A stretch of DNA of 64,000 nucleotides from a bacterium (lineage in GTDB: Bacteria; Patescibacteriota; Andersenbacteria; UBA10190; CAIZMI01): assembly GCA_030647555.1 (NCBI GenBank), contig JAUSJG010000027.1, forward strand, positions 15,532 through 79,531, in the 5' to 3' direction. Of this stretch, positions 5,318 through 46,263 are shown piece after piece. A program made the position numbers and the translations under genes. Every line of letters begins with the position of its first letter. Within the stretch, counting starts at the first letter, position 1. Below the pieces are notes generated by a model, which did not search any database, had not been told where the DNA came from, and saw nothing but the letters and a program-made list of their open reading frames with translations.

Positions 5318-5450
5318 TTCAATTATCAATTCCCAATTTTCAAACAATTATCAATTATTTAATTGTCAAAAGTTGCGCGTTTTGGAAAATTGAAATTTGA
5401 AAATTAATTGATAATTGGTCATTGAAAATTGATAATTTTAAATTTTAAAA
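5318..5450. promoter_or_regulatory. AT-rich upstream element of htpX; shares ~30-nt blocks (ttcaattatcaatt..., aattggtcattgaaaattga.aatttt) with the region upstream of the dsbA-like gene at 37456-37600
   Basis: Direct sequence comparison of the two intergenic regions. Both lie immediately 5' of minus-strand envelope-quality-control genes. Confidence 0.45.
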
Positions 5451-12436: not shown

Positions 12437-12610
12437 GGACTGCCAGGGTCGGATATCGGGTCGGACTGCTGTAGCGGTCCGACCCGCATTGGTCGGCGAC
12501 ACGTTGCCGCCAATCAAGGTCGGACCGCTCGGCAGTCCGACCTTACGCAGACGGGTCCGACCCTGAACCCAACGTGGTTCAGGGGTCCGACCTTAATGCG
12601 TCGTCTAATT
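12437..12610. repeat. REP-like cluster of at least four hairpins with GGTCGGAC/GTCCGACC arms
   Basis: ggtcggac-tgctgtagcg-gtccgacc; ggtcggac-cgctcggca-gtccgacc; gggtccgaccctgaacc-caacg-tggttcaggggtccgacc. Same family at 1-73 and 55076-55178. Confidence 0.6.
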
Positions 12611-12742
12611 CAGTCCCCTAAATGACGATTTTAGAAATTAGATATTAGTAATTGGAAATTTTTAAAACGATATGATTTTGTCATATCTGCTATTTAGCGT
12701 TATACTATCTTTATCAAAAAACAAACTAACATTTCGTAACAC

Positions 12743-13960
12743 ATGTCCCTATTTTCCAGAAAAGAATCTTATATCGGTTTAGATATTGGTACGTCTTCAA
12801 TAAAGATTGTTGAATTGAAGCGAGAGGGGAAGGATCAAATAAGATTAGTTACCTATGCGTCCGCGAAGAGCGCGGAGTCTTTGGCGAGTGATCAAAACAA
12901 TTCAGCCGTCGCGCATGTTGCGACAATCGCGCACGAGATATTACGGCGCGCGGGGGTGACTTCTTCGGAAGTGGTAGCCGCGCTTCCCAGTTTGTCTGTT
13001 TTTTCTGCTGTACTTTCTCTCCCTGATATGAGTGAACGTGATTTGGAAAAGGCGGTTGTTTTGGCGGCCAAAAATTATGTACCATCGCCATTAAAGGATG
13101 TTGTTTTGGGTTGGACGGTGATGAAGGAGGGTATTTCGTCAAAACCGGCATTGCCTGTGGATAAATCCAATAATCAGATGCAGTCGGTTGTAGGTGCCGT
13201 GGGAAAATTTGTTGATTTGAAAAAAAATGAAAATTCGGGCCAAGAGAAGCAAATTGTTCCGGTTGTTCCCGAAGATAGCGCCGAATTGAAAGTGCGTCGC
13301 CCTCTTGCGAAGAAAAACTCGGAAATATTTTTGACGGCTGCTCCCAAGGAATTGGTGCAACGCTATTCGGCGGTGATTGATCGATTGAATTTGAGCTTGG
13401 TTGCGTTGGAAGTCGAATCTTTTCCACTTTCACGTTCTCTTTTGGGGAACGCGAAGGAACCGGCGTTATTGGTGGATATTGGCGATTTGGCGACAAATTT
13501 TTCGATTGTGGATAACGGTTATTTGCGCATCAACCAGAGTGTCGATATTGGCGGAGCCGTATTAACCAAGGCTGTTGTCTCAAAATTTGGTGTTTCGTTG
13601 GAAGTGGCGGAAGCGCGCAAGTTTTCCTTTGGTTTAACTTCGGAAAAAGATAATGAAAGTACGGCAATGGCTTTAAAACCGGTAGTAAAAGATATTATTG
13701 ATCGAAGTATTAATCTAAAACGTATTTTTGAAAGAAAAAGCAATAAGGTTGTTGGTCGCGTGGTATTGATTGGCGGGGGGGCGAACCTAAAAGGTCTTGC
13801 GCAATTTTGGCAAGAAACATCGGGGATGTTTACCGAGGTGGGAAATCCATGGAAAGGCGTGCGGGTTCCGCTCACTTTAACTAATAAGTTAATTGCAAAC
13901 GGGCCTTCTTTCGCGGTGGCGGTTGGTTTGGCATTGCGCGAATTGGAACTTGGGGACTGA
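12743..13960 (+). CDS. pilM: Type IV pilus assembly protein PilM (actin-like ATPase fold)
   Basis: 405 aa. N-terminal YIGLDIGTSSIKIVEL actin-fold phosphate-1 motif. C-terminal VVLIGGGANLKGL. Sits at the head of the pilN/O/B cluster. Confidence 0.85.
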   Translation: MSLFSRKESYIGLDIGTSSIKIVELKREGKDQIRLVTYASAKSAESLASDQNNSAVAHVATIAHEILRRAGVTSSEVVAALPSLSVFSAVLSLPDMSERDLEKAVVLAAKNYVPSPLKDVVLGWTVMKEGISSKPALPVDKSNNQMQSVVGAVGKFVDLKKNENSGQEKQIVPVVPEDSAELKVRRPLAKKNSEIFLTAAPKELVQRYSAVIDRLNLSLVALEVESFPLSRSLLGNAKEPALLVDIGDLATNFSIVDNGYLRINQSVDIGGAVLTKAVVSKFGVSLEVAEARKFSFGLTSEKDNESTAMALKPVVKDIIDRSINLKRIFERKSNKVVGRVVLIGGGANLKGLAQFWQETSGMFTEVGNPWKGVRVPLTLTNKLIANGPSFAVAVGLALRELELGD

Positions 13961-14129
13961 CGTAAATAAACTATCCATCTTATGTCCACTACATCTCTGA
14001 CTACAATTACTACTCAATCACAAAATCTCTCACCGTACTTACAGTACGCCTCAAGATTTTGTTCAATCGTAGTAACCGTATTCAGAGCGTATTGAACAGA
14101 ATATGGACAGGTTATTTACGTCAGTCCCC
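13952..14129. repeat. 178-bp element bounded by 27-bp terminal inverted repeats (ggggactgacgtaaataaactatccat ... atggacaggttatttacgtcagtcccc); left TIR overlaps the pilM stop codon; a third TIR copy at 6102-6128
   Basis: Inverted repeats read directly. Reverse complement of the right arm is ggggactgacgtaaataacctgtccat. Near-identical 27-mer at 6102-6128. Confidence 0.55.
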
Positions 14130-15512: not shown

Positions 15513-15806
15513 ATGAATTCACAAAATATCAGAGTTGTCGCTTATAGTGCAGTGGGGGTATTAGTATTAGTGCTTGTTGGTATTGTTAGTTACATTTATT
15601 TATCCGGCCGACAGCCGGCGGGTTTACAGCAGGTTGCGCGTTTAAATGTGGGCGGTGTTTCGTCGAATGAGGCTAATAGTCCCTTTAATGTCGCGGTGTT
15701 AAACAGTGGTGCGTATAAAGCGCTGGATAAGTCCTTGCTTGATGCGGATAAGTTGCCCGTAAAAGTGCCGGAAAACAGAGGTAAAGCCAATCTTTTTGGA
15801 ATATAG
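15513..15806 (+). CDS. Small single-TM protein; possible PilP-like component
   Basis: 97 aa. One TM helix. Position between pilO and pilB only. Confidence 0.3.
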   Translation: MNSQNIRVVAYSAVGVLVLVLVGIVSYIYLSGRQPAGLQQVARLNVGGVSSNEANSPFNVAVLNSGAYKALDKSLLDADKLPVKVPENRGKANLFGI

Positions 15807-18084: not shown

Positions 18085-19182
18085 ATGATCGGACGAACAC
18101 CGGAAAATCTTCTTAAAGACCTTTTCGAGCATGTAATTAGTCGTAATGCGTCTGATTTGCACTTGTCGGTGGGGAGACCGCCCGTAATTCGTATCGATGG
18201 GAAACTTTTTTCGGTTCCGGAGGTTGGTGTGTTAACAAAAATTGATTTAAATGAGGTGTTTAAGGCGATTGGTGGAGAAGAAAGGGCCAAGAAATTTGAT
18301 CAAGGTCAACAAGAGGTGGATTTTGCCTTTGCGCATGAAAGCGGTTTCCGCTTCCGTGTTAATGTCTATTTAACTTCTCAGGCGATAACAATCGCCATGC
18401 GGACAATTCCTCGCGACATTCGTACCTTGGATGAATTAAGTCTTCCGCACGAATTAGAGCAGTTTGCAAAACCGTCGCAAGGTTTTGTTTTAATTACCGG
18501 CCCAACTGGACACGGAAAAACAACTACCATGACGGCGATTGTGAATATAATTAATCGATCGAAAGTTGCTCATGTTATTACTATTGAAGATCCTGTGGAA
18601 TATGTTTACGTGGAAGATAAATGCCTGATTCATCAACGGGAAATTGGTCGTGATACCGAATCATTCTCGCAGGCGCTGAAAATGGCTTTTCGTGAAGACC
18701 CGAATGTCGTAGTGGTTGGTGAAATGCGTGATTTGGATAGCATTGCTACGGCTTTAACTATCGCGGAAACCGGTCACATGGTGTTTGCCACTTTGCACAC
18801 CAACAATTCCGCGCAAACCATCGACCGTATCGTTGATGTTTTTCCTGTCGGGCAACAGGCCCAAATTAGAACGCAGTTGGCGGGAACATTAACAGGGATT
18901 GTTTCACAGCGGTTAGTGCCGGCCAAGAACGGTGGTCGCTTACCGGCAGTTGAATTGCTTTTGGCCACACCAGCCGTTCGAAACTTAATTCGTGAGGGTG
19001 AAACGGCGCAAATTCCAGGGGTAATTCAAACTAGCGCCTCCCAAGGGATGATTCCTTTGGAAAGATCACTTAAATCGTTGGTTGATCAGAACCTTGTAAC
19101 AGTAGAGGAAGCAATGGTTTTTGCTTCCGACCCGTCGCTTCTTGGGTATAGCGATTTTGCGATGGGCAGTTCTATGGTATAA
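18085..19182 (+). CDS. pilT: Twitching-motility/retraction ATPase PilT
   Basis: 365 aa. Walker A GPTGHGKTTT. PilT-type His box. No N-terminal GSPII_E_N extension. Confidence 0.9.
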   Translation: MIGRTPENLLKDLFEHVISRNASDLHLSVGRPPVIRIDGKLFSVPEVGVLTKIDLNEVFKAIGGEERAKKFDQGQQEVDFAFAHESGFRFRVNVYLTSQAITIAMRTIPRDIRTLDELSLPHELEQFAKPSQGFVLITGPTGHGKTTTMTAIVNIINRSKVAHVITIEDPVEYVYVEDKCLIHQREIGRDTESFSQALKMAFREDPNVVVVGEMRDLDSIATALTIAETGHMVFATLHTNNSAQTIDRIVDVFPVGQQAQIRTQLAGTLTGIVSQRLVPAKNGGRLPAVELLLATPAVRNLIREGETAQIPGVIQTSASQGMIPLERSLKSLVDQNLVTVEEAMVFASDPSLLGYSDFAMGSSMV

Positions 19183-20414: not shown

Positions 20415-20507
20415 GGGTAGCTTTTAGGTTAATTTTGAACTTAGAAGCAAGATGGGCCTTGAAGAATAACTGGTTTATTTACGCCCAAAATTACCAATGT
20501 CCAATTA

Positions 20508-20541
20508 CCAATTTCCAATGAAATTTCAAATTCCAAAAACG
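20508..20541. promoter_or_regulatory. CCAATTTCCAA...CCAATGAAAT motif upstream of the pilin gene (also at 48612-48637 and 59351-59394)
   Basis: Three copies, each in the 5' region of a plus-strand gene. Confidence 0.35.
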
Positions 20542-20645
20542 TCGTCTTTGCGCCTGCCGGCCGTAGCTTTAGCGAAGGCTGGAGCCAATCTCCTGAACTT
20601 TCGTATTGAAAACATTACTATTTTATCGAGAGGAGGTGATCGCGT

Positions 20646-21056
20646 GTGAAAAAGTTAAATAACAAAGGTTTTACCCTCATCGAATTGTTGGTTGTTATTG
20701 CGATCATCGGATTGCTAGCATCAATGGTTTTGGTGGCGGTATCAACAGCAAGAGCAAAGGCGAAGGATGCCCGCGTTAAAGCTGATGTTCAACAAATTAG
20801 GGTTCTTGCGGAAGCTTCGGCGAGTGATTCTGGTTCTTACTCAGACACGACTAGTTGGCCTACAGCAGCACAAACATCTTACGGAACACTTTCTGGTGAT
20901 ATTGGATCTCAAGGAGGTACGGTTACAAAAAATGTTAATGGAACAACCTCGTTCTGTATTAGTTCAACTTTGCCATCTGATAGTACTAAGAGTTTTTGTT
21001 TGGCGACTACAGGCAAAACTGGTACCGTTGCGTGTGGAACAGGAGATTGTCCGTAA
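20646..21056 (+). CDS. pilA: Type IV (major) pilin, class-III signal peptide (GTG start)
   Basis: 136 aa. KG|FTLIELLVVIAIIGLLA prepilin cleavage/N-methylation motif. AGGAGG Shine-Dalgarno 8 nt upstream. Confidence 0.85.
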   Translation: MKKLNNKGFTLIELLVVIAIIGLLASMVLVAVSTARAKAKDARVKADVQQIRVLAEASASDSGSYSDTTSWPTAAQTSYGTLSGDIGSQGGTVTKNVNGTTSFCISSTLPSDSTKSFCLATTGKTGTVACGTGDCP

Positions 21057-21060
21057 AGAT

Positions 21061-21145
21061 ACAAATGGAAAAAAACAACGCGGAAAATCCCGCGTTGTTT
21101 TGTATTGTAGTTTTCCCCGACTTCGTGCCTACTCTCTGTTTAGTT
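21061..21145. repeat. 85-bp module containing a bidirectional rho-independent terminator (copy 1, terminates pilin gene)
   Basis: aaaaaaacaacgcggaaaatcccgcgttgtttt hairpin with flanking A-run and T-run. Identical 85-mer at 21432-21516. Confidence 0.65.
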
Positions 21146-21431
21146 CCCGACTTCGGAGGTGTTTGACATAACAATAAAATATGATTTATTAATCAGCTTG
21201 CATTGGCCAATTATGTGATTTTCAACATATGAAAAAACGCACTAACGCGACGTTTTTTTCACTTTTTTGTCTTTGACAAATTCTAAAATATTTAACTTAA
21301 TAATTAGCTTATACTAGCTAATTATTTTTGATTTACACCAGTAAAAAACTTTTTTCAAAGGATTGCAAAAAATTGTTTTATTTTCGTACATGAGTGTTTA
21401 TAAAGAAACGCACTAAACCTCCGAACTCAGG

Positions 21432-21516
21432 ACAAATGGAAAAAAACAACGCGGAAAATCCCGCGTTGTTTTGTATTGTAGTTTTCCCCGACTTCGTGCC
21501 TACTCTCTGTTTAGTT
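21432..21516. repeat. Second identical copy of the 85-bp terminator module, abutting the stop codon of the minus-strand GT-C gene
   Basis: Exact 85/85 identity with 21061-21145. Confidence 0.65.
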
Positions 21517-22739
21517 TATAGGTGGGTTTGTGTTGATTTTTTTTCTAGTGATGCCGTAACAAATATTAAGACGATAATGTAAAAGATAATTATTCGGGAG
21601 AACCATAGCGCAAGGTTGCTAAACGATGGGACAAACAGCGCAAGTAATTGTAATGGCAGGATTGTAAATAACGCGAGATAAAAAATTTGTCGGGCATATA
21701 AATTAAATTTGATAAACAATTTTTCATACAAAATATCCATCGTAAACAGCGAAAGAAAGATGTGCAGAATAAAAATTATTTGATAAAAGAACCGTAAATT
21801 ATTCATTGATGATTTTAAGAGCAAGACCGTTGTTACACTTATGGTTAAAAATAAGGCCATTAGAAACAGTCTTGGAATTGTTAATTTATGCTTTAAGGTA
21901 ATGAGGAAAGAAAGAGAAATAAACGCGATAAAGGTAAGCGGTGCGTCTAAAATGAAACTGCTAAAAGTCACTTCTCGAAAATAGTAGGCGGGTATAATGT
22001 TTGTAGCGATATCGGTATCGATTAAGCTTGTAGTTCCCAAAAGTGATGAGCTCAAGAACGAAAAAGGGGAGTGCCAAAGATAGGGATCGGTTAGAAAAAA
22101 TACAGCAATAGCAATTATTGCTAGAATAATCATGTTTTTGAATGAGTGATAATACCAGATCAGAACGGGTATAAATACGGCCAGCATTAGGGTCATATGG
22201 ATTCTCGAAGCAAGTGCTAGCCCAATGCAAACACCAATGAATAAGGTGTCTAATGGGAGTGTTTTTCTTTCTTTAACGTGATAAAGCGTGATAATCCAGG
22301 CTAATCCAAGCAATTTAGCGGTGATTATATCGGAAGGGTTGGTGAAAAGCGCATAGTCGCTACCCAGTAAAATTGCAATCCAAACAAGCCACCAGAGATT
22401 GTTTCTGTATATTTTAAAAACATAGAAAAGGATAAAAAACGTCGCAAAAGAGTCTATAATTACACACGCTAAGCGAATACTGCGCAGTGGTGAAAACAGA
22501 TTTGAAGGAAAAAGATTTGATACCAACAAAGGAAATGTTCCCGGGTGCGTGGAATGGATACTCGGATTAAAGTCGAAACTATGCGTCCGCAGGTCGTTTA
22601 CTAGTTGGATTTTCTTTCCAACCCAGTAGCCCCCGTCAGCAATACCTGCGGTATTCCAAAGAAAAAGAGAAATTAAAAATATAGCCAGAAAGATGATGGG
22701 AAAGCAACGAATGGGGTTTATTTGGCTAATTTTGTACAT
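21516..22739 (-). CDS. Polytopic membrane protein, GT-C-fold glycosyltransferase-like (ArnT/PMT/O-antigen-ligase-like); candidate pilin glycosyltransferase
   Basis: 407 aa, at least 10 predicted TM helices. Periplasmic loops with Asp-rich motif near the N-terminus. Function inferred from topology and location between the two pilin genes. Confidence 0.45.
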   Translation of the reverse strand: MYKISQINPIRCFPIIFLAIFLISLFLWNTAGIADGGYWVGKKIQLVNDLRTHSFDFNPSIHSTHPGTFPLLVSNLFPSNLFSPLRSIRLACVIIDSFATFFILFYVFKIYRNNLWWLVWIAILLGSDYALFTNPSDIITAKLLGLAWIITLYHVKERKTLPLDTLFIGVCIGLALASRIHMTLMLAVFIPVLIWYYHSFKNMIILAIIAIAVFFLTDPYLWHSPFSFLSSSLLGTTSLIDTDIATNIIPAYYFREVTFSSFILDAPLTFIAFISLSFLITLKHKLTIPRLFLMALFLTISVTTVLLLKSSMNNLRFFYQIIFILHIFLSLFTMDILYEKLFIKFNLYARQIFYLALFTILPLQLLALFVPSFSNLALWFSRIIIFYIIVLIFVTASLEKKSTQTHL

Positions 22740-22886
22740 TAGGGCTTATTTTGTGGATTTATTATTTTATTTAGCTAGTAAAGTGTAAGGTACAGATTTT
22801 GGTTATGAACCGCAACTATAGGTTGTATTGTGTGCTATAATTAAAAAAGTGATTAATGGGGGGATAATTCTTATTAGCGAATCTAA

Positions 22887-23324
22887 ATGAAAATAAATAC
22901 ACAGAAAAACAAAAAAGGGTTTACGATGATAGAGTTGTTGGTTGTAATATCGGTGATTGCTTTACTTGTCGCCCTCGTGCTTGTTGCAGTCTCAATGGCT
23001 AGGGTGAAGGCAAATAATTCTCGGATTAAGGGCGATATGGACCAGTTGCGGAAGCAAGCAGAAGTGATATACGTAGCAAATGGAATGACAACATATTGTA
23101 AGGGCGTAGTTGCGGGGGATTGTTTTAGTAATGGTCAGAACCCTCAGGTAATTTTGCTTCGTGATGATATTGTGAAAAGAAGTTATGCTGCAGCTTATCC
23201 AAATCTGATCGCAAATGATATTGGATATTGCATTTCATCAAAAATGGCAAATAATAATAGGCTTTGTTATGATTCTTCGGGCAAACAAACGACGGGTATG
23301 TGTTCGGGCATCGTGTGCCAATAA
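22887..23324 (+). CDS. Second type IV pilin (class-III signal peptide)
   Basis: 145 aa. KKG|FTMIELLVVISVIALLVALV. C-terminal cysteines (CYDSSGKQTTGMCSGIVC) suggest a disulfide-bonded loop. Confidence 0.85.
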   Translation: MKINTQKNKKGFTMIELLVVISVIALLVALVLVAVSMARVKANNSRIKGDMDQLRKQAEVIYVANGMTTYCKGVVAGDCFSNGQNPQVILLRDDIVKRSYAAAYPNLIANDIGYCISSKMANNNRLCYDSSGKQTTGMCSGIVCQ

Positions 23325-24079
23325 TGTTGGTAGTAATTGTTGGGGTTGCCCTTATCATTGGTAGTTTTTTGACGGTCGCTTCGGAAGACCCGGATGGGTT
23401 TGATTGGTTGACGCGAAAACGGTCGAAATGCATGGAATGTGGGCATGTTTTGGATTTTTATGATCTTTTTCCGGTTTTTAGTTACTTGTGGTTGAAGGGA
23501 AAATGTCGCTATTGTGGAAAACTTATTGCTCCATATCATTTGATCACCGAATTAACGACTGTTTTCGTTTTTGTATTAGCTTATTTAGTTACTCCGAAAC
23601 CGCTACAAATAGGTTTTGTTTTTTTGTTAGTGATGCTGACACTATTATTGGTGCTTACTTTAACAGATCTGAAGTTTTGGACGCTACCGGATATCTTCGT
23701 CGGTCTATTGGCGCTTGTTGGTATTATTCGCGCCATAGTTATACACAGGCCGGATATAAAAGACTGTCTGGCGGGTGCGGTTGTGGGTTTTTTGTTGCTC
23801 GGTGGTATTCACTATTTTTCAAAAGGGAAGGCAATGGGCTTTGGGGACGTAAAACTGGCCGCCGCCATGGGGGTTGTACTGGGACTAGGACAAGTTGTTC
23901 TGGCCTTAATGATTGCTTTTGTCTTGGGAGGCATTGTTGGCGCTGTGCTTATGGCTCTAAAGAAGGCAACCGCAAAAAGCATGGTGCCGTTTGGGCCGTT
24001 TCTCACAATTGCAACGGCACTATTGTTGTTATTTCCACAGTTATATGGACGTATTCTTCTTTTTTACGGTCTGATGTAA
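23300..24079 (+). CDS. pilD: Prepilin peptidase PilD (A24 family); likely true start at the ATG at 23324 overlapping the pilin stop (TAATG)
   Basis: 259 aa. CMECGHVL...CRYCGK tetracysteine zinc motif. Multiple TM helices. Conserved catalytic Asp residues context. Confidence 0.85.
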   Translation: MFGHRVPIMLVVIVGVALIIGSFLTVASEDPDGFDWLTRKRSKCMECGHVLDFYDLFPVFSYLWLKGKCRYCGKLIAPYHLITELTTVFVFVLAYLVTPKPLQIGFVFLLVMLTLLLVLTLTDLKFWTLPDIFVGLLALVGIIRAIVIHRPDIKDCLAGAVVGFLLLGGIHYFSKGKAMGFGDVKLAAAMGVVLGLGQVVLALMIAFVLGGIVGAVLMALKKATAKSMVPFGPFLTIATALLLLFPQLYGRILLFYGLM

Positions 24080-24094
24080 GATATAGACAGACAC

Positions 24095-24715
24095 ATGTTA
24101 CGGCAAAAACAAACAATAACTAAAAATTCCGGCTTTACGCTGATTGAAGCCATTGTGACGATAATAATAATGTTGTTATTAATGGGTATTCTTTTATCCG
24201 GTTATAGTCAGGCCAAACAGCGTTTCTTGGTACGTGATTCAGCTCAACAGTTTGCCGATGTAATTAGGCAGACAATCGCTGACACAAAAAACGGCATAAG
24301 GGTTGTACCCGTTGCACCCATTACTTGTGTGCCTGACACCTCAAACCCTGCTACCGCAGATTATCGTCAATGTTCTAATTATAAAATAAGAGCCACCTCA
24401 GTGGATGACGCAGGTGTTACATTTAATAAATATGATAAATATGTAATAGGTACGGGAGTAAAGTACGCAAATGATCCAATGAATCATCCGTTGCTGGTTG
24501 GGACGGCTTTTTTGGGGGAATTAAATCTTGATTTTACTTATTCTACCGGGACATTTCCGCTTGTATCTATTGGTATGACGGGTAATGGTGGTAGTGTTAC
24601 GTCGAACGAGACAATTCAGCTGACGATAATAAGCTTGAGCGATGGAAATATAAAAACTAATATTTGTATTATGAAGTCAGGTTCTGTGTTGGTTCAAGCA
24701 GATCCTTGTAACTAG
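24095..24715 (+). CDS. Minor pilin / pseudopilin with prepilin-type N-terminus
   Basis: 206 aa. NSG|FTLIEAIVTIIIMLLL. Confidence 0.75.
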   Translation: MLRQKQTITKNSGFTLIEAIVTIIIMLLLMGILLSGYSQAKQRFLVRDSAQQFADVIRQTIADTKNGIRVVPVAPITCVPDTSNPATADYRQCSNYKIRATSVDDAGVTFNKYDKYVIGTGVKYANDPMNHPLLVGTAFLGELNLDFTYSTGTFPLVSIGMTGNGGSVTSNETIQLTIISLSDGNIKTNICIMKSGSVLVQADPCN

Positions 24716-24723
24716 AAAAATTT

Positions 24724-25440
24724 ATGAAAAAATATAAATTTTTAAAATCAAACATAAAACAGAGAGGGTTTTCCTTGGTTGGTGTTTTGGTGGCGGCATT
24801 TATCGCGCTCCTTGTTCTTACGGCGCTTCTTTCAATGCTTTCGCAAATTTTAGCACTGGGAAGGGTTTCTAAAAACAAGTTCGTGGCCGTCAATCTGGCA
24901 AAAGAAGGGATTGAGCTGGTTCGCAATATGCGAGACAGTAACTGGTTGTATTATCCAGTCGTGAGTGGGACATCGGTACAAGCGATGCAATGGCGGGGAT
25001 GTCAAGGTGGTGGTACTGCTACAGATTGCGTGAAATTAAAAAGTTTGTGCAATGGGGGGCCATATACAGTCGATGCTTTGGATGATGACCTTATTTTGAA
25101 AAGTGCCCCCAACCTCACCGATAGAGAGTTGAAACAGGTTACTTATGGAGGGGCAAAAGTGTTTACACATCAAGCAGGTGGCACTACTAACCCCATCTTT
25201 AGTCGGTCAATAACAATTGGTTCGGCGGACATAGAACCCTCTGAATTGTCTGAAGATTATTTACCAGTCTTGCTTGGTTGTGGCGAAACGGCTGATTTCT
25301 CGAGCACTAATTCTTTAAAAATAAAACCAAGAGGTATTGTTGTTACTTCGAGGGTTGAGTGGCTTGAACCGGGGACTGGCACACCTAAGAATGTCGAGTT
25401 GACGGGAATTTTATATGATTGGTTAACACAAAGGCCATGA
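24724..25440 (+). CDS. Minor pilin-like protein (PilV/PilW-like N-terminus)
   Basis: 238 aa. QRG|FSLVGVLVAAFIALLVL. Confidence 0.6.
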   Translation: MKKYKFLKSNIKQRGFSLVGVLVAAFIALLVLTALLSMLSQILALGRVSKNKFVAVNLAKEGIELVRNMRDSNWLYYPVVSGTSVQAMQWRGCQGGGTATDCVKLKSLCNGGPYTVDALDDDLILKSAPNLTDRELKQVTYGGAKVFTHQAGGTTNPIFSRSITIGSADIEPSELSEDYLPVLLGCGETADFSSTNSLKIKPRGIVVTSRVEWLEPGTGTPKNVELTGILYDWLTQRP

Positions 25441-26045
25441 GGTATCAAGAAAAAAATAGCGGTTTTTCGTTGATTGAATTAATGGTGGCCGGTTCAATCT
25501 TTATACTTGTCTTGGGCTTTGTGGGTGGAATATTTTCAATGTTTGTTAGTCGACAGAAGCAACAGGTTGATACACAGTTACTACAGCAGGAAGTGCAGAA
25601 CTTTTTGGAAGTTATCGAACGTGACGTTAGGACAGCGTACGGAGAAAAGTTTAATGATCCGAATGCATCATCAAATCAATCGATTTCATTTATGAATCAA
25701 GAGCAAAAGTTTACGCTCCCTGTTAGTGAGCGAGTTGAACATCAATATTCTTTAAAGACCGATATGGTCGAAAATTGGATAGGGCGAGTATATTATAATG
25801 ACGGCAGTGGATCATTATCTATGCCTATTCCTATTACATCCGATAAAATTAATGTAACAAACCTAGAGTTCAAATGGAATAAAGGGAAGTTCGCGACAGA
25901 CAGTAGTGGTAACCATTATCTAACCGGAGTTCCTTTACGGCTAACTATCGCGCTTGAGGTGTGTAGACGAGATGATCTAACCTCGTGCCTGCAAACTCAG
26001 GCCACGATTGCTTCTCGTCAAACTAAGCCGATAGATGAAAAATAA
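25437..26045 (+). CDS. Minor pilin with prepilin-type N-terminus (start chosen at ATG overlapping upstream stop, ATGA; longest ORF would start 25419)
   Basis: NSG|FSLIELMVAGSIFILVL. Confidence 0.7.
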   Translation: MRYQEKNSGFSLIELMVAGSIFILVLGFVGGIFSMFVSRQKQQVDTQLLQQEVQNFLEVIERDVRTAYGEKFNDPNASSNQSISFMNQEQKFTLPVSERVEHQYSLKTDMVENWIGRVYYNDGSGSLSMPIPITSDKINVTNLEFKWNKGKFATDSSGNHYLTGVPLRLTIALEVCRRDDLTSCLQTQATIASRQTKPIDEK

Positions 26046-26491
26046 TGCTTAAATATATTTTACAAAAAAACAACAATAAGGGGGAAGTGGCGCTAATTTA
26101 TGTTTTCATTATTTTGTCGATACTGATTGTAAGCGCATTTACTCTTTCCGCGATCGCTATAAGTACAATTAAGGGGTCCGGGACCGCCGAATATGTTGCC
26201 CGTGCTCAAGTCGCCTCCGACAGTTATCTTGAAAAAGCGATGTTTCAATTTCATTGGTCAAAACTCACAGACAGTCGATGCTTGAATACGGTAACACCCG
26301 TTGACGGTGATGGCACGAAGGTTACTGTAATGGTGGACAATGGTGAAAAAGGAGTGTGCCCATCGCTTGATGGTGTTGTTACAAAAAAAGATGAAAAGCT
26401 CTGTGTGTATTCATTTGCTGAAAATCACGGCGTTCAGAAAAAGGGATCGGCCGGAGCGGGTGACCCTACAAAGGGTTGCGAAGTGAGATAG
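26045..26491 (+). CDS. Pilus-associated hypothetical protein with N-terminal hydrophobic helix (PilX-like?)
   Basis: 148 aa. TAATG coupling to upstream gene. N-terminal membrane helix. Several cysteines. Confidence 0.4.
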   Translation: MLKYILQKNNNKGEVALIYVFIILSILIVSAFTLSAIAISTIKGSGTAEYVARAQVASDSYLEKAMFQFHWSKLTDSRCLNTVTPVDGDGTKVTVMVDNGEKGVCPSLDGVVTKKDEKLCVYSFAENHGVQKKGSAGAGDPTKGCEVR

Positions 26492-26528
26492 GATTTGAGA
26501 GATCTTAGCTACTGCTAAAAGGTCCAGC

Positions 26529-28541
26529 TTGCTTTATGATTCATCTATGGACAAAAGCAGTGCTAAAAAACGTATAATCAAACTTCGTGAGGAAATTGAG
26601 TATCATCGTCACCTTTATCATGTTTTAGATAAGCAGGAGATTTCGGATTCTGCGTTGGATTCGCTTAAGCACGAGCTTTACGGGCTAGAACAGCAGTTTC
26701 CTGACCTAATTACAAAAGACTCTCCAACACAGCGCGTGGGCGGGGAGCCGTTGAAAGAGTTTAAAGAAGTTCAGCATCAATCCCAAATGCTTTCTTTGGA
26801 GGATGTTTTTTTGGCGGAAGAATTGACCGACTGGGAAGAACGCAATCGTAAAATTTTTCCACAAGGTAAATACAATTATTATTGCGAATTGAAAATCGAC
26901 GGCTTGGCAATCGAATTACGATATCGTGACGGAGTATTGTTTGAAGCATCAACCAGAGGTGATGGAAAAACCGGTGAGAACGTTACGGAAAATATAAAGA
27001 CCATCGAAAGTATTCCTTTGAGAATTATTGGTAAGGCACCCAAAGAACTAACAGTGCGTGGCGAGGTGTATATGAATCAAGACCAGTTTGACGCGCTAAA
27101 CAAGGAACAGGAAAAACTTGGGAAACCGCTTTATGCTAATCCGCGTAACGTGGCGGCGGGCAGTATTCGTCAGTTGGATTCGAAAATTACCGCCAGCCGA
27201 AAATTGCATTGTGTGACATATGACATTGTTGATGATCAGTCGTTTGCAAAGCATCATGAAGAACATTTGGCATTGAAAAAATATGGTTTTCGGACAAGCG
27301 CGCAAACGGAAGAATGTGCTGATCTTGCGATCGTGGCCAAATATCACGCGAGGTGGCAACAAAAACGCGATTTATTACCGCACTGGATTGATGGGGTGGT
27401 GGTTTTCATTGATGACAATGAGACATTTCGTCGTCTGGGTGTGGCTGGAAAAACTCCACGCGGGGCAGTGGCATTTAAGTTCCCGGCCGAAGAAGCGACA
27501 ACGGTTGTGGAAGATATTCTCGTTCAGGTGGGTCGCACGGGTGCTCTTACTCCTGTTGCGGTTCTACGGCCTGTTTCTGTGGCAGGAACGACGGTCAGCA
27601 GGGCAACACTACATAACGAAGATGAAATTCATCGAAAAGATGTACGCGTGGGTGATACTGTTGTGATTCACAAAGCCGGCGATATTATTCCGGAAGTGGT
27701 ACGCGTTTTGCCAAAGTTGCGTCCGAACAAGACTAAGGAGTTTAGAATGCCCGTCAAGTGTCCAATTTGTGATGCTAGGGTGGAAAAAGAAAAGGATGGT
27801 GCGATTTCGCGTTGTACAAACAAACAGTGTTCCGCCCAGCAACTTGAGGGACTCATTCATTTTGTCTCGAGAACAGCAACAGACATGGAAGGTGTTGGTC
27901 CGAAATTGATTGAAAAATTGGTGGAGATTGGATTAGTGCGTGATTCTGCGGATTTGTACGGATTAAAAAAAACGGATGTGGTTAGTCTTGAACGTTTCGC
28001 GGAGAAATCAGCCGACAATGTGATTGAATCTATTCAGGGCCGGAAAAATCTTTCGCTGGGAAGATTCATTTATGCGCTTGGGATACAGCATGTAGGTAAT
28101 GTTACGGCCGTAGCATTGGCGGAGAAGTTTTCAACTCTGACAAATATTCAAAAAGCGTCCGAAGAAGAATTGTCTGCCGTGGATGGCGTGGGTGACGTGG
28201 TGGGAAAAAGTATTTATGAATTTTTTCAGTCGAAGCACGCCGGGGAATTATTGAAAAAATTTGAGAAAAATGGAGTGGTGGTAGAAAAAGCAGTGGTAAT
28301 AAAGAGAACAGGCATTTTTTCAGGAAAAACAGTTGTGGTAACAGGCAGTTTAGGTGATTTAACACGCGATGAAGTATGGGAAGAAATTCGCAAGCGTGGA
28401 GGAAAAATCACGGAAACAGTTTCTAAAAAAACCGGCTTATTGATAGTGGGGGAAGAACCGGGATCAAAGGTGGTAAAAGCGCAGAAGTTGGGAGTAGAGA
28501 TAATGGACGCGAAAGAATTTTTGAAAAAAATAAAAGAATGA
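26529..28541 (+). CDS. ligA: NAD+-dependent DNA ligase
   Basis: 670 aa. Adenylation motif ELKIDGLAIEL (KxDG). Zn-finger CPICDARVEKEKDGAISRCTNKQC. HhH and C-terminal BRCT. Confidence 0.95.
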   Translation: MLYDSSMDKSSAKKRIIKLREEIEYHRHLYHVLDKQEISDSALDSLKHELYGLEQQFPDLITKDSPTQRVGGEPLKEFKEVQHQSQMLSLEDVFLAEELTDWEERNRKIFPQGKYNYYCELKIDGLAIELRYRDGVLFEASTRGDGKTGENVTENIKTIESIPLRIIGKAPKELTVRGEVYMNQDQFDALNKEQEKLGKPLYANPRNVAAGSIRQLDSKITASRKLHCVTYDIVDDQSFAKHHEEHLALKKYGFRTSAQTEECADLAIVAKYHARWQQKRDLLPHWIDGVVVFIDDNETFRRLGVAGKTPRGAVAFKFPAEEATTVVEDILVQVGRTGALTPVAVLRPVSVAGTTVSRATLHNEDEIHRKDVRVGDTVVIHKAGDIIPEVVRVLPKLRPNKTKEFRMPVKCPICDARVEKEKDGAISRCTNKQCSAQQLEGLIHFVSRTATDMEGVGPKLIEKLVEIGLVRDSADLYGLKKTDVVSLERFAEKSADNVIESIQGRKNLSLGRFIYALGIQHVGNVTAVALAEKFSTLTNIQKASEEELSAVDGVGDVVGKSIYEFFQSKHAGELLKKFEKNGVVVEKAVVIKRTGIFSGKTVVVTGSLGDLTRDEVWEEIRKRGGKITETVSKKTGLLIVGEEPGSKVVKAQKLGVEIMDAKEFLKKIKE

Positions 28542-32915: not shown

Positions 32916-33111
32916 TGTGTGTGTATATTTTATTTTTGGTAAACGGTATAGGTATTTAGGCTTGTTCATCATAGCTTCGTCTTCGTTTGTATCGATATAT
33001 CGATACAAGGTTTTGGAAATTTTGAATTTCATTAGAAATTAGATATTAGTAATTAGTCATTTTGGGCGTCGATAAAACAGTATTAGCAGAGTTAAACAAG
33101 ATGTTTATATT

Positions 33112-34819: not shown

Positions 34820-34893
34820 CGCGGGGAAGAGCAGCCCGGTCGCTCGCATGGCTCATAACCATGAGGTCGCAGGTTCGAATCCTGCCCCCGCTA
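34820..34893 (+). tRNA. tRNA(CAU), initiator-like (C1/U72 mismatch, A11:U24)
   Basis: Cloverleaf folded by hand: acceptor cgcgggg/ccccgct, D-stem gagc/gctc, anticodon stem catgg/ccatg with loop ctCATaa, T-arm gcagg-ttcgaat-cctgc, discriminator A. No encoded CCA. Confidence 0.7.
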
Positions 34894-34935
34894 CTATTAC
34901 TAAAAAGACCCCTGTGGGGTCTTTTTAGTAATAGA
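34894..34935. terminator. Perfect hairpin after the tRNA (ctattactaaaaagacccc-tgt-ggggtctttttagtaatag)
   Basis: 19-bp stem read directly. Similar aaaatacccctgtggggtatttt hairpin at 35044-35066. Confidence 0.45.
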
Positions 34936-34940
34936 ATGTG

Positions 34941-35375
34941 TGCAGGATTCGAACGGTTCATATTTTCGTCGCACGAAAACATGAACCGGTGGCCAGAATT
35001 ATGCAATATCAATTGCATAATTCGAGGCCAAATCCTGCCCACAAAATACCCCTGTGGGGTATTTTTATTGTTATGATCGAGTGCAGGATTTGAACGGTAT
35101 CGTTGTTTCGTAAAACAACGATACCGGTGGCCAGAATTATGCAATATCAATTGCATAATTCGAGGCCAAATCCTGCCCCCTGCGTGGCTCGTGTTTTATT
35201 TATAAAATTTCGCAAAGCGAAATGACAATAATGACGAGCGATATCTTCGAACCAATACTATTGGTTCGAAGATATCGCTCGGATTTGAACGCCGGAGCAT
35301 ATTTTGCGAAGCAAAATGCGAGGCGGTGGCCAGAAACTTTCGTGTCAACGAAAGTTTCGAGGCCAAATCCTGCCC
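34941..35375. repeat. Three tandem ~95-100-nt structured elements (34941-35040, 35083-35178, 35281-35375). Conserved scaffold: gcaggatTYgaac-[hairpin1]-ggtggccaga-[hairpin2]-tcgaggccaaatcctgccc. Candidate structured ncRNAs or tRNA-end-derived miniature elements.
   Basis: Scaffold termini pair (gcaggatt/aatcctgc). tggcc/ggcca encloses hairpin 2. Hairpin 1 differs completely in sequence among the three units yet keeps a 13-14-bp stem. Hairpin 2 is aattatgcaat-atca-attgcataatt in units 1-2 but aaactttcg-tgtcaa-cgaaagttt in unit 3 (compensatory changes). The 3' end aatcctgccc equals the 3' T-arm/acceptor of the adjacent tRNA. Confidence 0.6.
35262..35306. repeat. Perfect inverted repeat gagcgatatcttcgaacc-aatactatt-ggttcgaagatatcgctc between structured units 2 and 3
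   Basis: 18-bp stem read directly. Confidence 0.45.
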
Positions 35376-35518
35376 AGCGCGTAAATCAGAAATCGGGAGT
35401 GGAAATCGGAGATGACGTCTTGTCCATTTACAAATGCAAAAAATTTAGTAGTATTACTCTAGTTTGGGAAGTCGGATGGATCCGACCACCGACTATCTGA
35501 TTTCCGATTTCCGCGTTT

Positions 35519-35591
35519 GGCTGGATAGCTCAGCGGTTAGAGCAATGGCATCATAAGCCATGGGTCGCAGGTTCGAATCCTGCTCCAGCTA
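35519..35591 (+). tRNA. tRNA(CAU), elongator-type (Met or Ile2/lysidine)
   Basis: Acceptor ggctgga/tccagct (G1-U72). D-stem gctc/gagc. Anticodon stem atggc/gccat with loop atCATaa. T-arm gcagg-ttcgaat-cctgc identical to the first tRNA. Discriminator A. Confidence 0.75.
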
Positions 35592-35617
35592 CAAATTATT
35601 CGTAGGGTATTTGTACA

Positions 35618-36583
35618 TTGTTCGCAAAACGTACGGATACGGTATATAATAGTAGCATGAGAGCAAAAGTTGTGGAAAAGTCGCGGGCAATTCAATTGCG
35701 TAAAAACGGTTTAAGTGTGAAACAGATTGCTCAAAAATTAAGCGTCAGCAAGGGTAGTGTCAGTCCTTGGGTGAAGCTGGTTGTTGTTCCGAAAGAAAAG
35801 AGAAAAAAGATCCGCGAAAGAATGTTAATGGGCGGAGAGAAGGGGAGAAAGAAAATTTTGCGAGGTTGGGATGAATATCGAATATTGCATCCAAAACCGC
35901 CACCATATGTTAAACCAGTCCGTTTAATTGACACTTTTTTTGACAAGTGGTCGCCCGAAATGGCGTATGTGCTGGGCTATTTTGCAGCGGACGGCTGTAT
36001 GTTTCGAAACAAGCGTGGGTCTTATTATATCGAATTTACCTCCACAGACATTGAGTTGATTGCATGTGTAAAAAGTATTTTGGAATCAACAAACAAACTT
36101 GAACGATACAAGCTTAAAAACCCAAAATATAAAATCAGGTATAATATTCAGCTTGGGAGTAAAAGTGCTTTCTTGTCGCTTAATAAACTTGGTTTAACAC
36201 CAAATAAGAGTTTAATAATCAAGTTTCCAGCTGTGCCTGATGAGTATTTGGGGCATTTTTTGCGTGGTAACCTTGATGGCGACGGCTGTGTTACTTTCAC
36301 AAATTATTTTCGAAAAGACAGGGGAAAAAGATATTTGAGTTTAATGATCCGTTTCACCAGTGGAAGTAGAGTGTTTTTAGTCGGGATGAAAAATAGGATT
36401 GAACAAAAAATACCGAATATCGGTGGAAGTTTGATATTATACACTCCAAGGCACCATGTTTTGGCGTATTGCACGTCAAGTGCTAGACAACTGTATAAGA
36501 TAATGTATCCTAATAAATTAGTGCCCTGTCTAAAGCGTAAACGTGACATTTTTCTTAGGGCATTTGAGATTTTGGACCCGTAG
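35618..36583 (+). CDS. Free-standing double-motif LAGLIDADG homing endonuclease with N-terminal helix-turn-helix domain
   Basis: 321 aa. Motif 1 MAYVLGYFAADGCMF and motif 2 LGHFLRGNLDGDGCV (LAGLIDADG consensus). N-terminal LSVKQIAQKLSVSKGSVSPW HTH-like. Last two codons plus stop overlap the 5' acceptor of tRNA-Asp. Confidence 0.85.
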   Translation: MFAKRTDTVYNSSMRAKVVEKSRAIQLRKNGLSVKQIAQKLSVSKGSVSPWVKLVVVPKEKRKKIRERMLMGGEKGRKKILRGWDEYRILHPKPPPYVKPVRLIDTFFDKWSPEMAYVLGYFAADGCMFRNKRGSYYIEFTSTDIELIACVKSILESTNKLERYKLKNPKYKIRYNIQLGSKSAFLSLNKLGLTPNKSLIIKFPAVPDEYLGHFLRGNLDGDGCVTFTNYFRKDRGKRYLSLMIRFTSGSRVFLVGMKNRIEQKIPNIGGSLILYTPRHHVLAYCTSSARQLYKIMYPNKLVPCLKRKRDIFLRAFEILDP

Positions 36584-37384: not shown

Positions 37385-37455
37385 AATGATTGATTGAAGT
37401 GTTAGATCTATATGATGAGCATATAGAAAGGATGGAGGAGAAGCAAGCGCAAATT

Positions 37456-37600
37456 TTCAATTATCAATTTTGCAATTTTCAAATAATTTTCAATGATTTA
37501 ATTATTTGATAGCGTCACCATCTTTGAGAATTAGAAGAATTGATAATTATTTGAAAATTGGTCATTGAAAATTGAAAATTTTGTATAATTATTCATATAA
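37456..37600. promoter_or_regulatory. AT-rich divergent promoter region sharing conserved blocks with the htpX upstream region (5318-5450)
   Basis: ttcaattatcaatt...ttttcaa and aaaattggtcattgaaaattgaaaatttt present in both. Confidence 0.45.
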
Positions 37601-44405: not shown

Positions 44406-44517
44406 TTCTTTTTTAATTTGACGTAATTCTGCGTGTACTGCTATCCCGCTATTGCGTGTGATCCGTTTTTGTGTTGTTTATCGTAAAAACTTTGTTTTGT
44501 TGTGTTATCATATACGG

Positions 44518-46263
44518 ATGAATGACCAACAAGATAAAAATCTAATAAGTGAACCTATTAAACCGCCAGTTGTGAATAATCCTATTCCTCAAACAAAGGT
44601 AGTTTCTGACATTATTCCGGAAGTTGATAAAAGTCTTTTGATAAAACCGAATGACCAGCTTTTGAATATAGATCTTCAGTCCAAAGAAAAGATTGCGGAA
44701 GTGAAGCAAAAAAACGACTTTAAAGTGCTAACAGCTGTGCCATTGGTTGTCGATAATAATGCCAGCTCGATACTACTGGGGATTGAAGAGAAAAAACCGT
44801 TTAATCGGTTGTTTATCATTACTCCTTTTTTTCTATTGGTACTTGCCGGTTTTGCCGTGGCTTTCTATAGCGGAGTTCTGCCGTTGCCATTTTGGGGTTT
44901 GACGCATGAACAAGTCATAGAAAAAATGTTTGACGCTATCCCCAATATTCGTTCCGGTCGTTTTGGGATGGAAATCAATTTTAAATCCTCGGCAAGACAA
45001 GCGGGAATGCAAGGATATGATTTATCTCCAATGTTGGGTGGGGCGGGAAACGGCGCGTCGGTTGATGGTGCCGGCGAAAGAGATCGTGTACGGCTTAACG
45101 CAACTAGTGATATTGCGACCGCCTTGGAAGCTTATAAAAAACAGAATGGTAAATATCCGCAATTTCTTAATGATATAAAAATCGTCACTCCTGATATTAT
45201 CCTTGATCCGGCTTCAAAAAACCAATTTGGTTATCGACAAGAAAAGGGCGGAATGGATTTCACACTGCATATACAGATGGAGACCGATCAAGGAATCAAT
45301 AATTTTCGAAATGCCGTGTTGGTAATTCCTTCCGCATCTCTGCAAACTGTCGAGGATAAGTTGGCGGTGGTGCATGCTGATACGCCAAAACTTAAGAAAC
45401 AAAACGTATCGTCTGTTTCAGCAAATACAACACCGGCATATGACCCAACGGTTGTTCTTCAAAATTTACCGTCCGAAATTGACGCAAATCTTCGTTTTTC
45501 CGGTTTAGCTAAACAAGGTATCGCTGGTAGTGACGCGCTTTTGAATATTGACGGTAGTTTAAAATTGAGTGGAATGAGTTTTTCCGCCGGTTTGGGATTG
45601 ATAAAAAAAGGCGATATTGTTTATGGGAAAGTTAAAGAGGTTCCAACGTTGGGTTTCTTTGATCTTGCTGTGCTTAGAGATAAATGGGTCAAGTTGGAGA
45701 AGGCCGATTTAAGCAAATTAGGGTTTAAAGACGCGGATCAGCAGTTACAACAGGAAAATATGGCAAAGTATCTTGTGTTGGCGAAAACATACTTGCAAAT
45801 TCTAAAAGAAGAAAAAGTCTTTTCAGTTGTTAAAGAGTTGCCGAAGACGAAAGATAAAAATGACACTTATTATCATTACGCGGTGAATATTAATAGTGAT
45901 AAAATAGCGGTTATTTACGAAAGATTAAACGCCGAAATAAAGAAGCAATTTGGCGGTAAAGGTGACTATATCAGCGCTGATTTGATCGCTTATCTTCGTG
46001 GTTCGGAATACGCCAAAATCAATAAAATTTCTCAACAAAACACGCAAATAGAGATCTGGATCGATACAAAGAATTTTTGGCCGCATAAATTCACTTCAAA
46101 CTCGGTCTTTGTACCACCGGATAATATTCAAAAATTGAAAGACAAACAGTACCTTGCGCAGGTGACCTTTGATCTATTTGACGTAAATAAGCCAATTGTT
46201 GTCGACGCGCCCACAGAATTTATTTCTCTCGATGATGCGCAGAAACTGGTGACGGGGAAATAG
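44518..46263 (+). CDS. Membrane-anchored hypothetical protein with a pilin-fold-like segment (ATALEAYKKQNGKYP)
   Basis: 582 aa from the ATG at 44518. One TM helix at ~aa 100-125. Motif resembling the conserved alpha-beta loop region of type IV pilins and pseudopilins. Confidence 0.45.
   Translation: MNDQQDKNLISEPIKPPVVNNPIPQTKVVSDIIPEVDKSLLIKPNDQLLNIDLQSKEKIAEVKQKNDFKVLTAVPLVVDNNASSILLGIEEKKPFNRLFIITPFFLLVLAGFAVAFYSGVLPLPFWGLTHEQVIEKMFDAIPNIRSGRFGMEINFKSSARQAGMQGYDLSPMLGGAGNGASVDGAGERDRVRLNATSDIATALEAYKKQNGKYPQFLNDIKIVTPDIILDPASKNQFGYRQEKGGMDFTLHIQMETDQGINNFRNAVLVIPSASLQTVEDKLAVVHADTPKLKKQNVSSVSANTTPAYDPTVVLQNLPSEIDANLRFSGLAKQGIAGSDALLNIDGSLKLSGMSFSAGLGLIKKGDIVYGKVKEVPTLGFFDLAVLRDKWVKLEKADLSKLGFKDADQQLQQENMAKYLVLAKTYLQILKEEKVFSVVKELPKTKDKNDTYYHYAVNINSDKIAVIYERLNAEIKKQFGGKGDYISADLIAYLRGSEYAKINKISQQNTQIEIWIDTKNFWPHKFTSNSVFVPPDNIQKLKDKQYLAQVTFDLFDVNKPIVVDAPTEFISLDDAQKLVTGK

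Follow-up and report, generated by a model that had tools for sequence, protein, structure and literature searches.

A putative MITE-like insertion flanked by an exact 85-nt repeat of a terminator region between convergent pilin and GT-C-like genes in a Patescibacteria genome

Ordinary target-site duplications are 2–14 bp in length. Miniature inverted-repeat transposable elements (MITEs), such as the Correia elements of Neisseria, occur as multi-copy families and are accompanied by short duplications of 2–10 bp. Here we describe a locus in a 64,000-nt stretch of bacterial DNA (referred to below as the window; positions 15,532 to 79,531 of contig JAUSJG010000027.1, from the Patescibacteriota assembly GCA_030647555.1), in which a 286-nt AT-rich segment, designated S, is located between two exact copies of an 85-nt direct repeat, designated R. 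The structure occupies the intergenic region between a type IV pilin gene and a convergent gene for a GT-C-fold membrane glycosyltransferase-like protein. The reading that we put forward, and hold at about even confidence, takes S for a non-autonomous element of the MITE-like kind and R for its 85-nt target-site duplication.

S resembles MITEs in its small size, below the ~600 nt expected of the class, and in its inverted ends, lack of a transposase gene, AT-richness, structure, intergenic site and flanking direct repeats, and differs from them in that one copy is known and the duplication is 85 nt long. The only bacterial elements documented with long and variable target repeats are IS1549 of Mycobacterium smegmatis and IS1634 of Mycoplasma mycoides, which belong to a family with terminal inverted repeats and whose direct repeats range from 8 to 514 bp and for which no model of the mechanism has been put forward (PMC2266710). 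The length of R, taken from a single copy, falls inside this range. Both ends of S, CCCGACTT and CCTGAGTT, fit the end consensus of the IS1634 family, C-----YT (PMC2266710), a fit expected about 1 in 32 times by chance, and none of the other nine end-consensus groups tabulated in the same source fits them. With its three informative positions, this fit is a weak lead and not a sign of family membership. Most IS1634-family members make duplications of 5–6 bp, and the elements are 1.5–2 kb long with a DDE transposase, whereas S is 286 nt and non-coding; S could at most be a derivative of the family, since it lacks the DDE transposase by which a member is recognized. The target duplications of the IS1202 group have been called “unusually long” at 16–28 bp (PMC10132070). 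S shares a long duplication with this group, but one of 85 nt, and the IS1202-group elements are autonomous and 1.5 kb in size.

Several other classes were considered for the repeat-spacer-repeat structure and rejected. A diversity-generating retroelement does not agree with R copies that are 100% identical and non-coding, and no reverse transcriptase was found among 20 open reading frames (ORFs) of the window scanned against NCBIfam (these were picked from 57 stop-to-stop frames of at least 150 aa, and most ORFs flanking the site are not among them). An integron attC site or cassette, a CRISPR-like repeat-spacer array, a group II intron and an IS200/IS605-type element were discarded because their sizes, ends or neighbour genes do not fit.

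R begins with ACAAATGG and ends with GTTTAGTT. Its two copies, at 21061–21145 and 21432–21516, are 100% identical and offset by 371 nt from start to start, which is the length of one R+S unit. The initial annotation had reported an exact 85-bp duplication flanking a 286-bp AT-rich spacer between the pilin and GT-C genes, and both the coordinates and the identity are confirmed here. The identity cannot be extended by even one base on either side, the bases to the left of the copies being ...AAGAT and ...CTCAGG and those to the right CCCGAC... and TATAGG.... The edges are sharp and without microhomology. No further copy of R is present in the 64-kb window, and the 31-nt hairpin core of R gave 0 matches in shuffled sequences. 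The left copy begins 4 nt past the pilin stop codon. The right copy abuts the minus-strand GT-C stop, as had been noticed before, with position 21516 being the final base of both the repeat and the stop codon. As read here, the left copy and the right copy of a duplicated target now serve the pilin gene and the GT-C gene, respectively.

Bidirectional Rho-independent terminators occur between convergent genes, and R was described from the outset as such a module. This description holds: R is predicted to be a bidirectional intrinsic terminator, as its hairpin, a 12–13 bp GC-cored stem with the arms AAAACAACGCGG and CCGCGTTGTTTT around a loop, lies between a preceding A-run and a following T-run, is predicted to fold on either strand, and occurs with the same stem at the same position in three syntenic loci of relatives. 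The hairpin is located at 21072–21101 in the left copy, where it is terminator-like on the minus strand with the tail TTTCCATTTG, and at 21443–21472 in the right copy, where it folds and the minus-strand scan match is followed by TTTTTTTCC. In the fold predicted for R it is the main feature on either strand, at -22 kcal/mol for each. The minus strand passes the terminator consensus scan with 13 pairs, 6 of them GC, and a 7-T tail; the plus-strand hairpin, followed by the interrupted T-tract TTTTGTATTGT, was not flagged in that scan. Compared with known bidirectional intrinsic terminators, R is alike in its GC-cored hairpin, its A- and T-runs, its placement between convergent stops and its conservation in relatives, and differs in its interrupted plus-strand T-tract and in being present twice, owing to the insertion.

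The stronger evidence for a derived event comes from related genomes, a comparison that had been called for earlier. It covers three syntenic loci, which represent two related lineages: L002, a contig from a JGI metagenome, at ~76% nucleotide identity to the window; L004, an ENA scaffold; and L006, a GTDB representative genome whose PilC has 92% amino acid identity. L004 and L006 are essentially one sequence at this region. In all three loci the pilin gene is followed by one hairpin and then by the convergent GT-C gene, and S is absent. The stop-to-stop distances are 108 nt in L002 and 61 nt in both L004 and L006, and removal of one R+S unit from the window leaves an intergenic region of 88 nt, consistent with the relatives. 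A 29-nt portion of the hairpin is 100% identical in L002, while L004 and L006 have the same stem with a different loop; the stem AACAACGCGG/CCGCGTTGTT itself is unchanged in all three, in flanking DNA that is 70–83% identical. The hairpin core of R was absent from the GTDB representative genomes, and its one occurrence in the JGI metagenomes was in the syntenic L002, where it is 29 nt long. Because the three relatives' loci carry one hairpin and no S, one shared bidirectional terminator is the ancestral arrangement and the 371-nt R+S unit a lineage-specific gain. The derived nature of the duplication is thus better evidenced by its absence from the relatives than by the identity of the copies. 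The initial annotation had deduced a recent duplication or ongoing gene conversion from the perfect identity, which was overstated: 85 identical bases only cap the divergence between the copies at roughly 3.5% (95% limit, our own calculation), so that “recent” is a relative term.

The ends of S change how the whole structure is to be viewed. S (21146–21431) terminates in 15-nt inverted repeats, CCCGACTTCGGAGGT on the left (21146–21160) and ACCTCCGAACTCAGG on the right (21417–21431), which are placed exactly at the two S/R junctions. They are 13/15 complementary, or 14/16 when one base of R is added on each side, and given that the ends are fixed independently by the boundaries of R, the chance of the 13/15 complementarity is P ~6e-6. 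This feature, absent from the initial annotation, recasts the locus: instead of a terminator that was duplicated around a spacer, it would be an inserted element with a copy of its target on either side.

The body of S has a GC content of 29.4%, against 44.2% in the whole window, and the longest ORF inside it is only 25 aa. S is more strongly folded than its shuffles, with z-scores of -4.4 on the plus strand and -5.7 on the minus strand. The palindrome quoted previously, TAATTAGCT-TATACT-AGCTAATTA, is indeed present at 21301–21324 (as the shorter form TAATTAGCTTATACTAGCTAATTA); its arms extend to 11 bp around a 6-nt loop at 21299–21326 and give an 11-bp stem in the folds of both strands. S had also been called promoter-like, a label that does not stand, as a sigma-70 consensus scan found zero sites in S on either strand and the sole nearby matches fall in R. 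Rfam at gathering thresholds returned three tRNAs only for the whole window, and a permissive scan of 20900–21700 gave sub-threshold matches only, the best with 27 bits against a gathering threshold of 75 and driven by the terminator hairpin. No tRNA or tmRNA was found at S, the nearest tRNA being 13 kb off. S is described as MITE-like because it is small, AT-rich, non-coding and strongly structured, with inverted ends and a flanking direct repeat; the inverted ends are exactly terminal, the length of the flanking repeat is atypical for the class, and the sites without S in L002, L004 and L006 are orthologous rather than exact empty sites.

Two other origins of S were tried and rejected. A decayed pilin cassette or gene fragment was rejected after a tblastn search of the intergenic region with four pilins and two GT-C proteins, which gave no remnant match better than E 0.19. 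A degenerate inverted copy of the terminator within S was rejected as well, since the best local alignment between S and R scored 20, compared with a mean of 16.8 and a maximum of 27 for shuffles. S also contains an 18-nt direct repeat, TATGAAAAAACGCACTAA at 21228–21245 and TATAAAGAAACGCACTAA at 21399–21416, matching at 16/18 positions. The second copy directly borders the right inverted end on its inner side, and the repeat may be a subterminal binding site or a chance match.

A simple course of events would lead to this arrangement. The ancestral region of ~88 nt between the convergent pilin and GT-C genes would have held one shared bidirectional terminator, into which S would have inserted by way of staggered cuts ~85 nt apart, one of them 4 nt past the pilin stop and the other within the GT-C stop codon. 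Repair of the two resulting single-stranded gaps would have copied the whole terminator region and so produced R as an exact 85-nt duplication; gap repair of this kind is expected to leave what is seen, a perfect repeat whose edges are abrupt and lack microhomology. Both reading frames would thereby have stayed intact, each gene would have retained a full terminator at its original distance from the stop codon, and transcription into or out of S, which would lie between two terminators, would stop. The transposition mechanism, the staggered cut and the neutrality are what we infer from this layout: the insertion should be nearly neutral, and presumably persists for that reason. Recombination between direct repeats can delete the intervening segment, and the two R copies could plausibly recombine in this way, which would remove S together with one R and restore the ancestral state. 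The initial annotation had further suggested that the repeats serve as recombination points for pilin-locus variation; nothing that we tested supports such a role.

Several observations weigh against the view of S as a MITE-like insertion. We know of no MITE with a duplication this long. A target duplication of 85 nt is far beyond the norm, and such a length is documented for two IS1634-family elements only (PMC2266710). No transposase was found among the 20 scanned ORFs. Neither a second copy of S nor matching ends were found in the 64-kb window, the relatives' loci, phage and plasmid records or the IMG/VR viral contigs (three patterns); these sets make up the coverage of the S searches, the scan of JGI metagenomes having used R as the query. 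The relatives are 17–30% divergent and the 3′ half of R cannot be aligned with them, so that they offer an orthologous site and not an empty site from the same species. A 10-mer from the left end of S, CCCGACTTCG, is found again within R, 30 nt upstream, which the insertion model does not account for. Finally, another small inverted-repeat element in the window, the 178-nt element described below, has an apparent duplication of 5 nt (GGTCT) at the site of its extra copy in L006, which is not long.

What other explanations could give rise to the same structure? S might have been acquired without transposition, either at a double-strand break or replication template switch in the terminator, repaired with S as foreign or distant filler, or from a donor fragment, taken up by natural transformation, that carried S together with a homologue of R. 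In the latter case, homologous recombination on the R/GT-C side and an illegitimate joint just past the resident R would yield R-S-R, with the repeat length set by the position of the illegitimate joint. Such a capture is unlikely in our judgement, though several points speak for it: the repeat length is arbitrary under it, and hence 85 nt requires no special enzyme; a type IV pilus/competence-like set (PilB, PilT, PilC, PilD and pilins) is adjacent; S is foreign in composition, with 29% against 44% GC, and single-copy everywhere searched; and the hypervariable 3′ half of the pilin gene has a conserved 83-nt 5′ block on one side and the conserved hairpin on the other, a layout expected from recombinational exchange. 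However, the inverted repeats exactly at both joints (P ~6e-6) are left unaccounted for, unless the captured piece was a complete inverted-repeat element, neither joint has the microhomology that illegitimate joints usually show, and no donor sequence is known. We give very little credence to an integration at R, in which a circle carrying R and S, maybe the remnant of a larger element, would have entered by a single crossover within R, homologous or site-specific (attL/attR). Identical direct repeats of tens to ~100 nt are normal at attachment-site integration, and on a circle R would have an inverted end of S on each side. Yet there is no integrase or recombinase in or beside the unit, with S lacking any ORF longer than 25 aa and its neighbours being the pilin and GT-C genes, and a 371-nt circle is implausible as a replicon or element. 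Tyrosine-recombinase cores have their inverted sites 6–8 nt apart, whereas those of S would be separated by the 85 nt of R; neither a tRNA, the nearest being 13 kb away, nor any other usual target is present at the site; and S bears no resemblance to phage or plasmid DNA in the records searched.

An assembly artefact, which the initial annotation had named as the finding that would undo the repeat, can be judged from an independent assembly. Under this explanation, which is very improbable, the true order would be pilin-R-GT-C, and the assembler would have threaded in the R-S-R loop, either out of a cycle in its graph or out of a different strain or locus that also contains R. In favour of it, the genome was assembled from a metagenome, and its species is on record in one sample, SRR13727527: exact look-ups of the GT-C protein, PilC, the second pilin and the response regulator returned this sample only, and the exact pilin product had no record in the searched collection, Logan included. 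The Logan assembly of SRR13727527 is an independent k=31 assembly, two contigs of which are 100% identical to the window, and its contigs break at 18335, 20581 and 21487, indicating some heterogeneity around the locus. One of them, L001, corresponds to positions 21487–27739 and ends exactly 30 nt (k-1) inside the right copy of R. This end denotes a branch of the graph at the right boundary of R, as expected where R has two different right-hand contexts in the reads; with pilin-R-GT-C alone, the contig would have run into the pilin gene, which argues against an artefact. Moreover, S must exist in the reads and adjoin R at both ends for such a path to arise, the remaining topology, a free 371-nt circle, is implausible, and R is unique in the window and absent from the GTDB representatives and the JGI metagenomes, except for the 29-nt hairpin core in L002. 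A different kind of alternative concerns function and is compatible with any model of origin, namely that S is a selected module, for instance a gene for a small RNA or a region with a regulatory or protein-binding role, insulated by terminators and with the palindrome at 21299–21326 as an operator. We regard this as improbable. S is more structured than its shuffles and has a strong palindrome, two plus-strand TTGACA hexamers are located at 21164 and 21273, and there is a terminator downstream in both directions. On the other hand, the consensus scan found no promoter-like site in S, no Rfam family reached its threshold, and without a homologue in the relatives no conservation or covariation is demonstrable; the terminal inverted repeats, along with AT-rich hairpins typical of MITEs, account for much of the structure signal.

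The pilin gene (20646–21056, plus strand, 136 aa) is the upstream one of the two convergent neighbours and has a Pfam N_methyl match with an E value of 8.5e-10. Compared with the syntenic pilins of L002 and L006, its product has 54% identity; the N-termini are the same, and the C-terminal halves diverge. It is preceded by a pilus cluster with PilM, a PilO-like protein, PilB, a response regulator, PilT and PilC, and is followed by a second pilin, a prepilin peptidase and minor pilins. Over an 83-nt block at 20628–20710 that takes in the pilin ribosome-binding site and the gene's first 21 codons, the window, L002 and L006 have 100% nucleotide identity. The genes around it have 70–83% identity, and the 3′ half of the pilin gene cannot be aligned, which points either to very strong constraint on the block or to its exchange between lineages. 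At 20480–20545, ahead of the pilin gene, lies an AT-rich motif, AATTACCAAT/AATTTCCAAT, which is also found at 33010–33081 on the minus strand, with similar sequences at 5320–5440 and 37450–37590. It is kept upstream of the pilin gene in L002 and L006, occurs sometimes as inverted pairs elsewhere in the window, and may be a promoter or regulatory module. A GC-rich segment at 20550–20590 (GCCTGCCGGCCGTAGCTTTAGCGAAGGCTGGAGCC) separates this motif from the ribosome-binding site of the pilin gene; the Logan contig L003 ends there, at 20581, and at the equivalent position L002 and L006 each have their own, different GC-rich hairpin-like segment.

The downstream convergent neighbour (21516–22739, minus strand) encodes a 407-aa protein (MDO8512712.1, annotated as hypothetical) that has no match in Pfam or NCBIfam. 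Its AlphaFold2 model has a pLDDT of 86.7 and a pTM of 0.87, and in a Foldseek search 15/15 of the top PDB matches are GT-C enzymes (STT3, ALG9, ALG3, PglB, EmbA/B, ArnT, Pmt4, AftA/B and DPY19). The labels given to the two genes at first, pilin and GT-C, are borne out by the N_methyl match and by these top 15 structural matches. The GT-C protein is rare: among 5.8 billion proteins there is one other cluster at 90% identity (2 in all), and an exhaustive HMMER search with it found 139 remote relatives. In an alignment of 55 homologues, PMT_2 was matched by 3/55 and an Alg9-like family by one, D35 and W39 are invariant, and the HPG motif (65–67) is nearly invariant. From its convergent position beside the major pilin gene, the protein is a candidate pilin glycosyltransferase. 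Elsewhere in the window, the ORFs at 35606–36580 (325 aa, between tRNA-Met and tRNA-Asp) and 44422–46260 (613 aa) have no NCBIfam match. For the threonyl-tRNA synthetase, the nearest relatives that carry a name are Patescibacteria, which places the organism in the candidate phyla radiation.

Other small repeated elements are present in the window. A 178-nt foldback element at 13952–14129, unrelated to S and with a partial copy from 6112, has perfect 18-nt inverted ends, GGGGACTGACGTAAATAA. It folds as one long hairpin (DNA z -11.7), has no Rfam match, and its left end provides the stop codon of pilM. L006 carries a syntenic copy at 2503–2680 and an extra copy at ~12483–12663, at the 3′ end of pilD, which is 85.6% identical over 139 nt and alters the C-terminus of PilD; the window is uninterrupted at the corresponding site in pilD (24072). 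This comparison demonstrates that small elements with inverted repeats do move in these genomes, and within the same pilus cluster, which supports the reading of S as an inserted element. A further repeat, of 56 nt, is found between tRNA-Met at 34820–34894 and tRNA-Met at 35519–35592: 34985–35040 and 35123–35178 are exact direct copies with a period of 138, and a third, partial copy belongs to the same region (34976–35382). Its units contain the palindrome GGCCAGAATTATGCAAT..ATTGCATAATTCGAGGCC, an end similar to a tRNA T-arm, TTCGAGGCCAAATCCTGCCC, and small GC hairpins, and look like tRNA-fragment repeats.

The wider significance of the R-S-R locus is limited, as it is one locus in one metagenome-assembled genome, with neither a transposase nor a second copy found. 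If the reading of S as a MITE-like element with R as its target-site duplication is right, the locus would be a clean natural case of an 85-nt target duplication, a property known from two insertion sequences and without a mechanistic model (PMC2266710), in a genome of the candidate phyla radiation, a group whose mobile elements have been little catalogued. A far bolder proposal, and to our mind an improbable one, is that S represents an undescribed class of small non-autonomous elements of Patescibacteria, whose transposase cuts on either side of a terminator hairpin and so duplicates the terminator. If true, this would be a “safe-harbour” strategy that spares the 3′ ends of convergent genes, and it would carry the long-duplication chemistry of IS1549 and IS1634 into a new lineage and into MITEs. 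In practical terms, the identical 85-nt repeats are a predictable site of element deletion and of breaks when this genome is assembled with short k. For the host, the locus suggests that a long duplication can render an insertion harmless, because the shared terminator is copied and neither of the convergent genes would lose its terminator.

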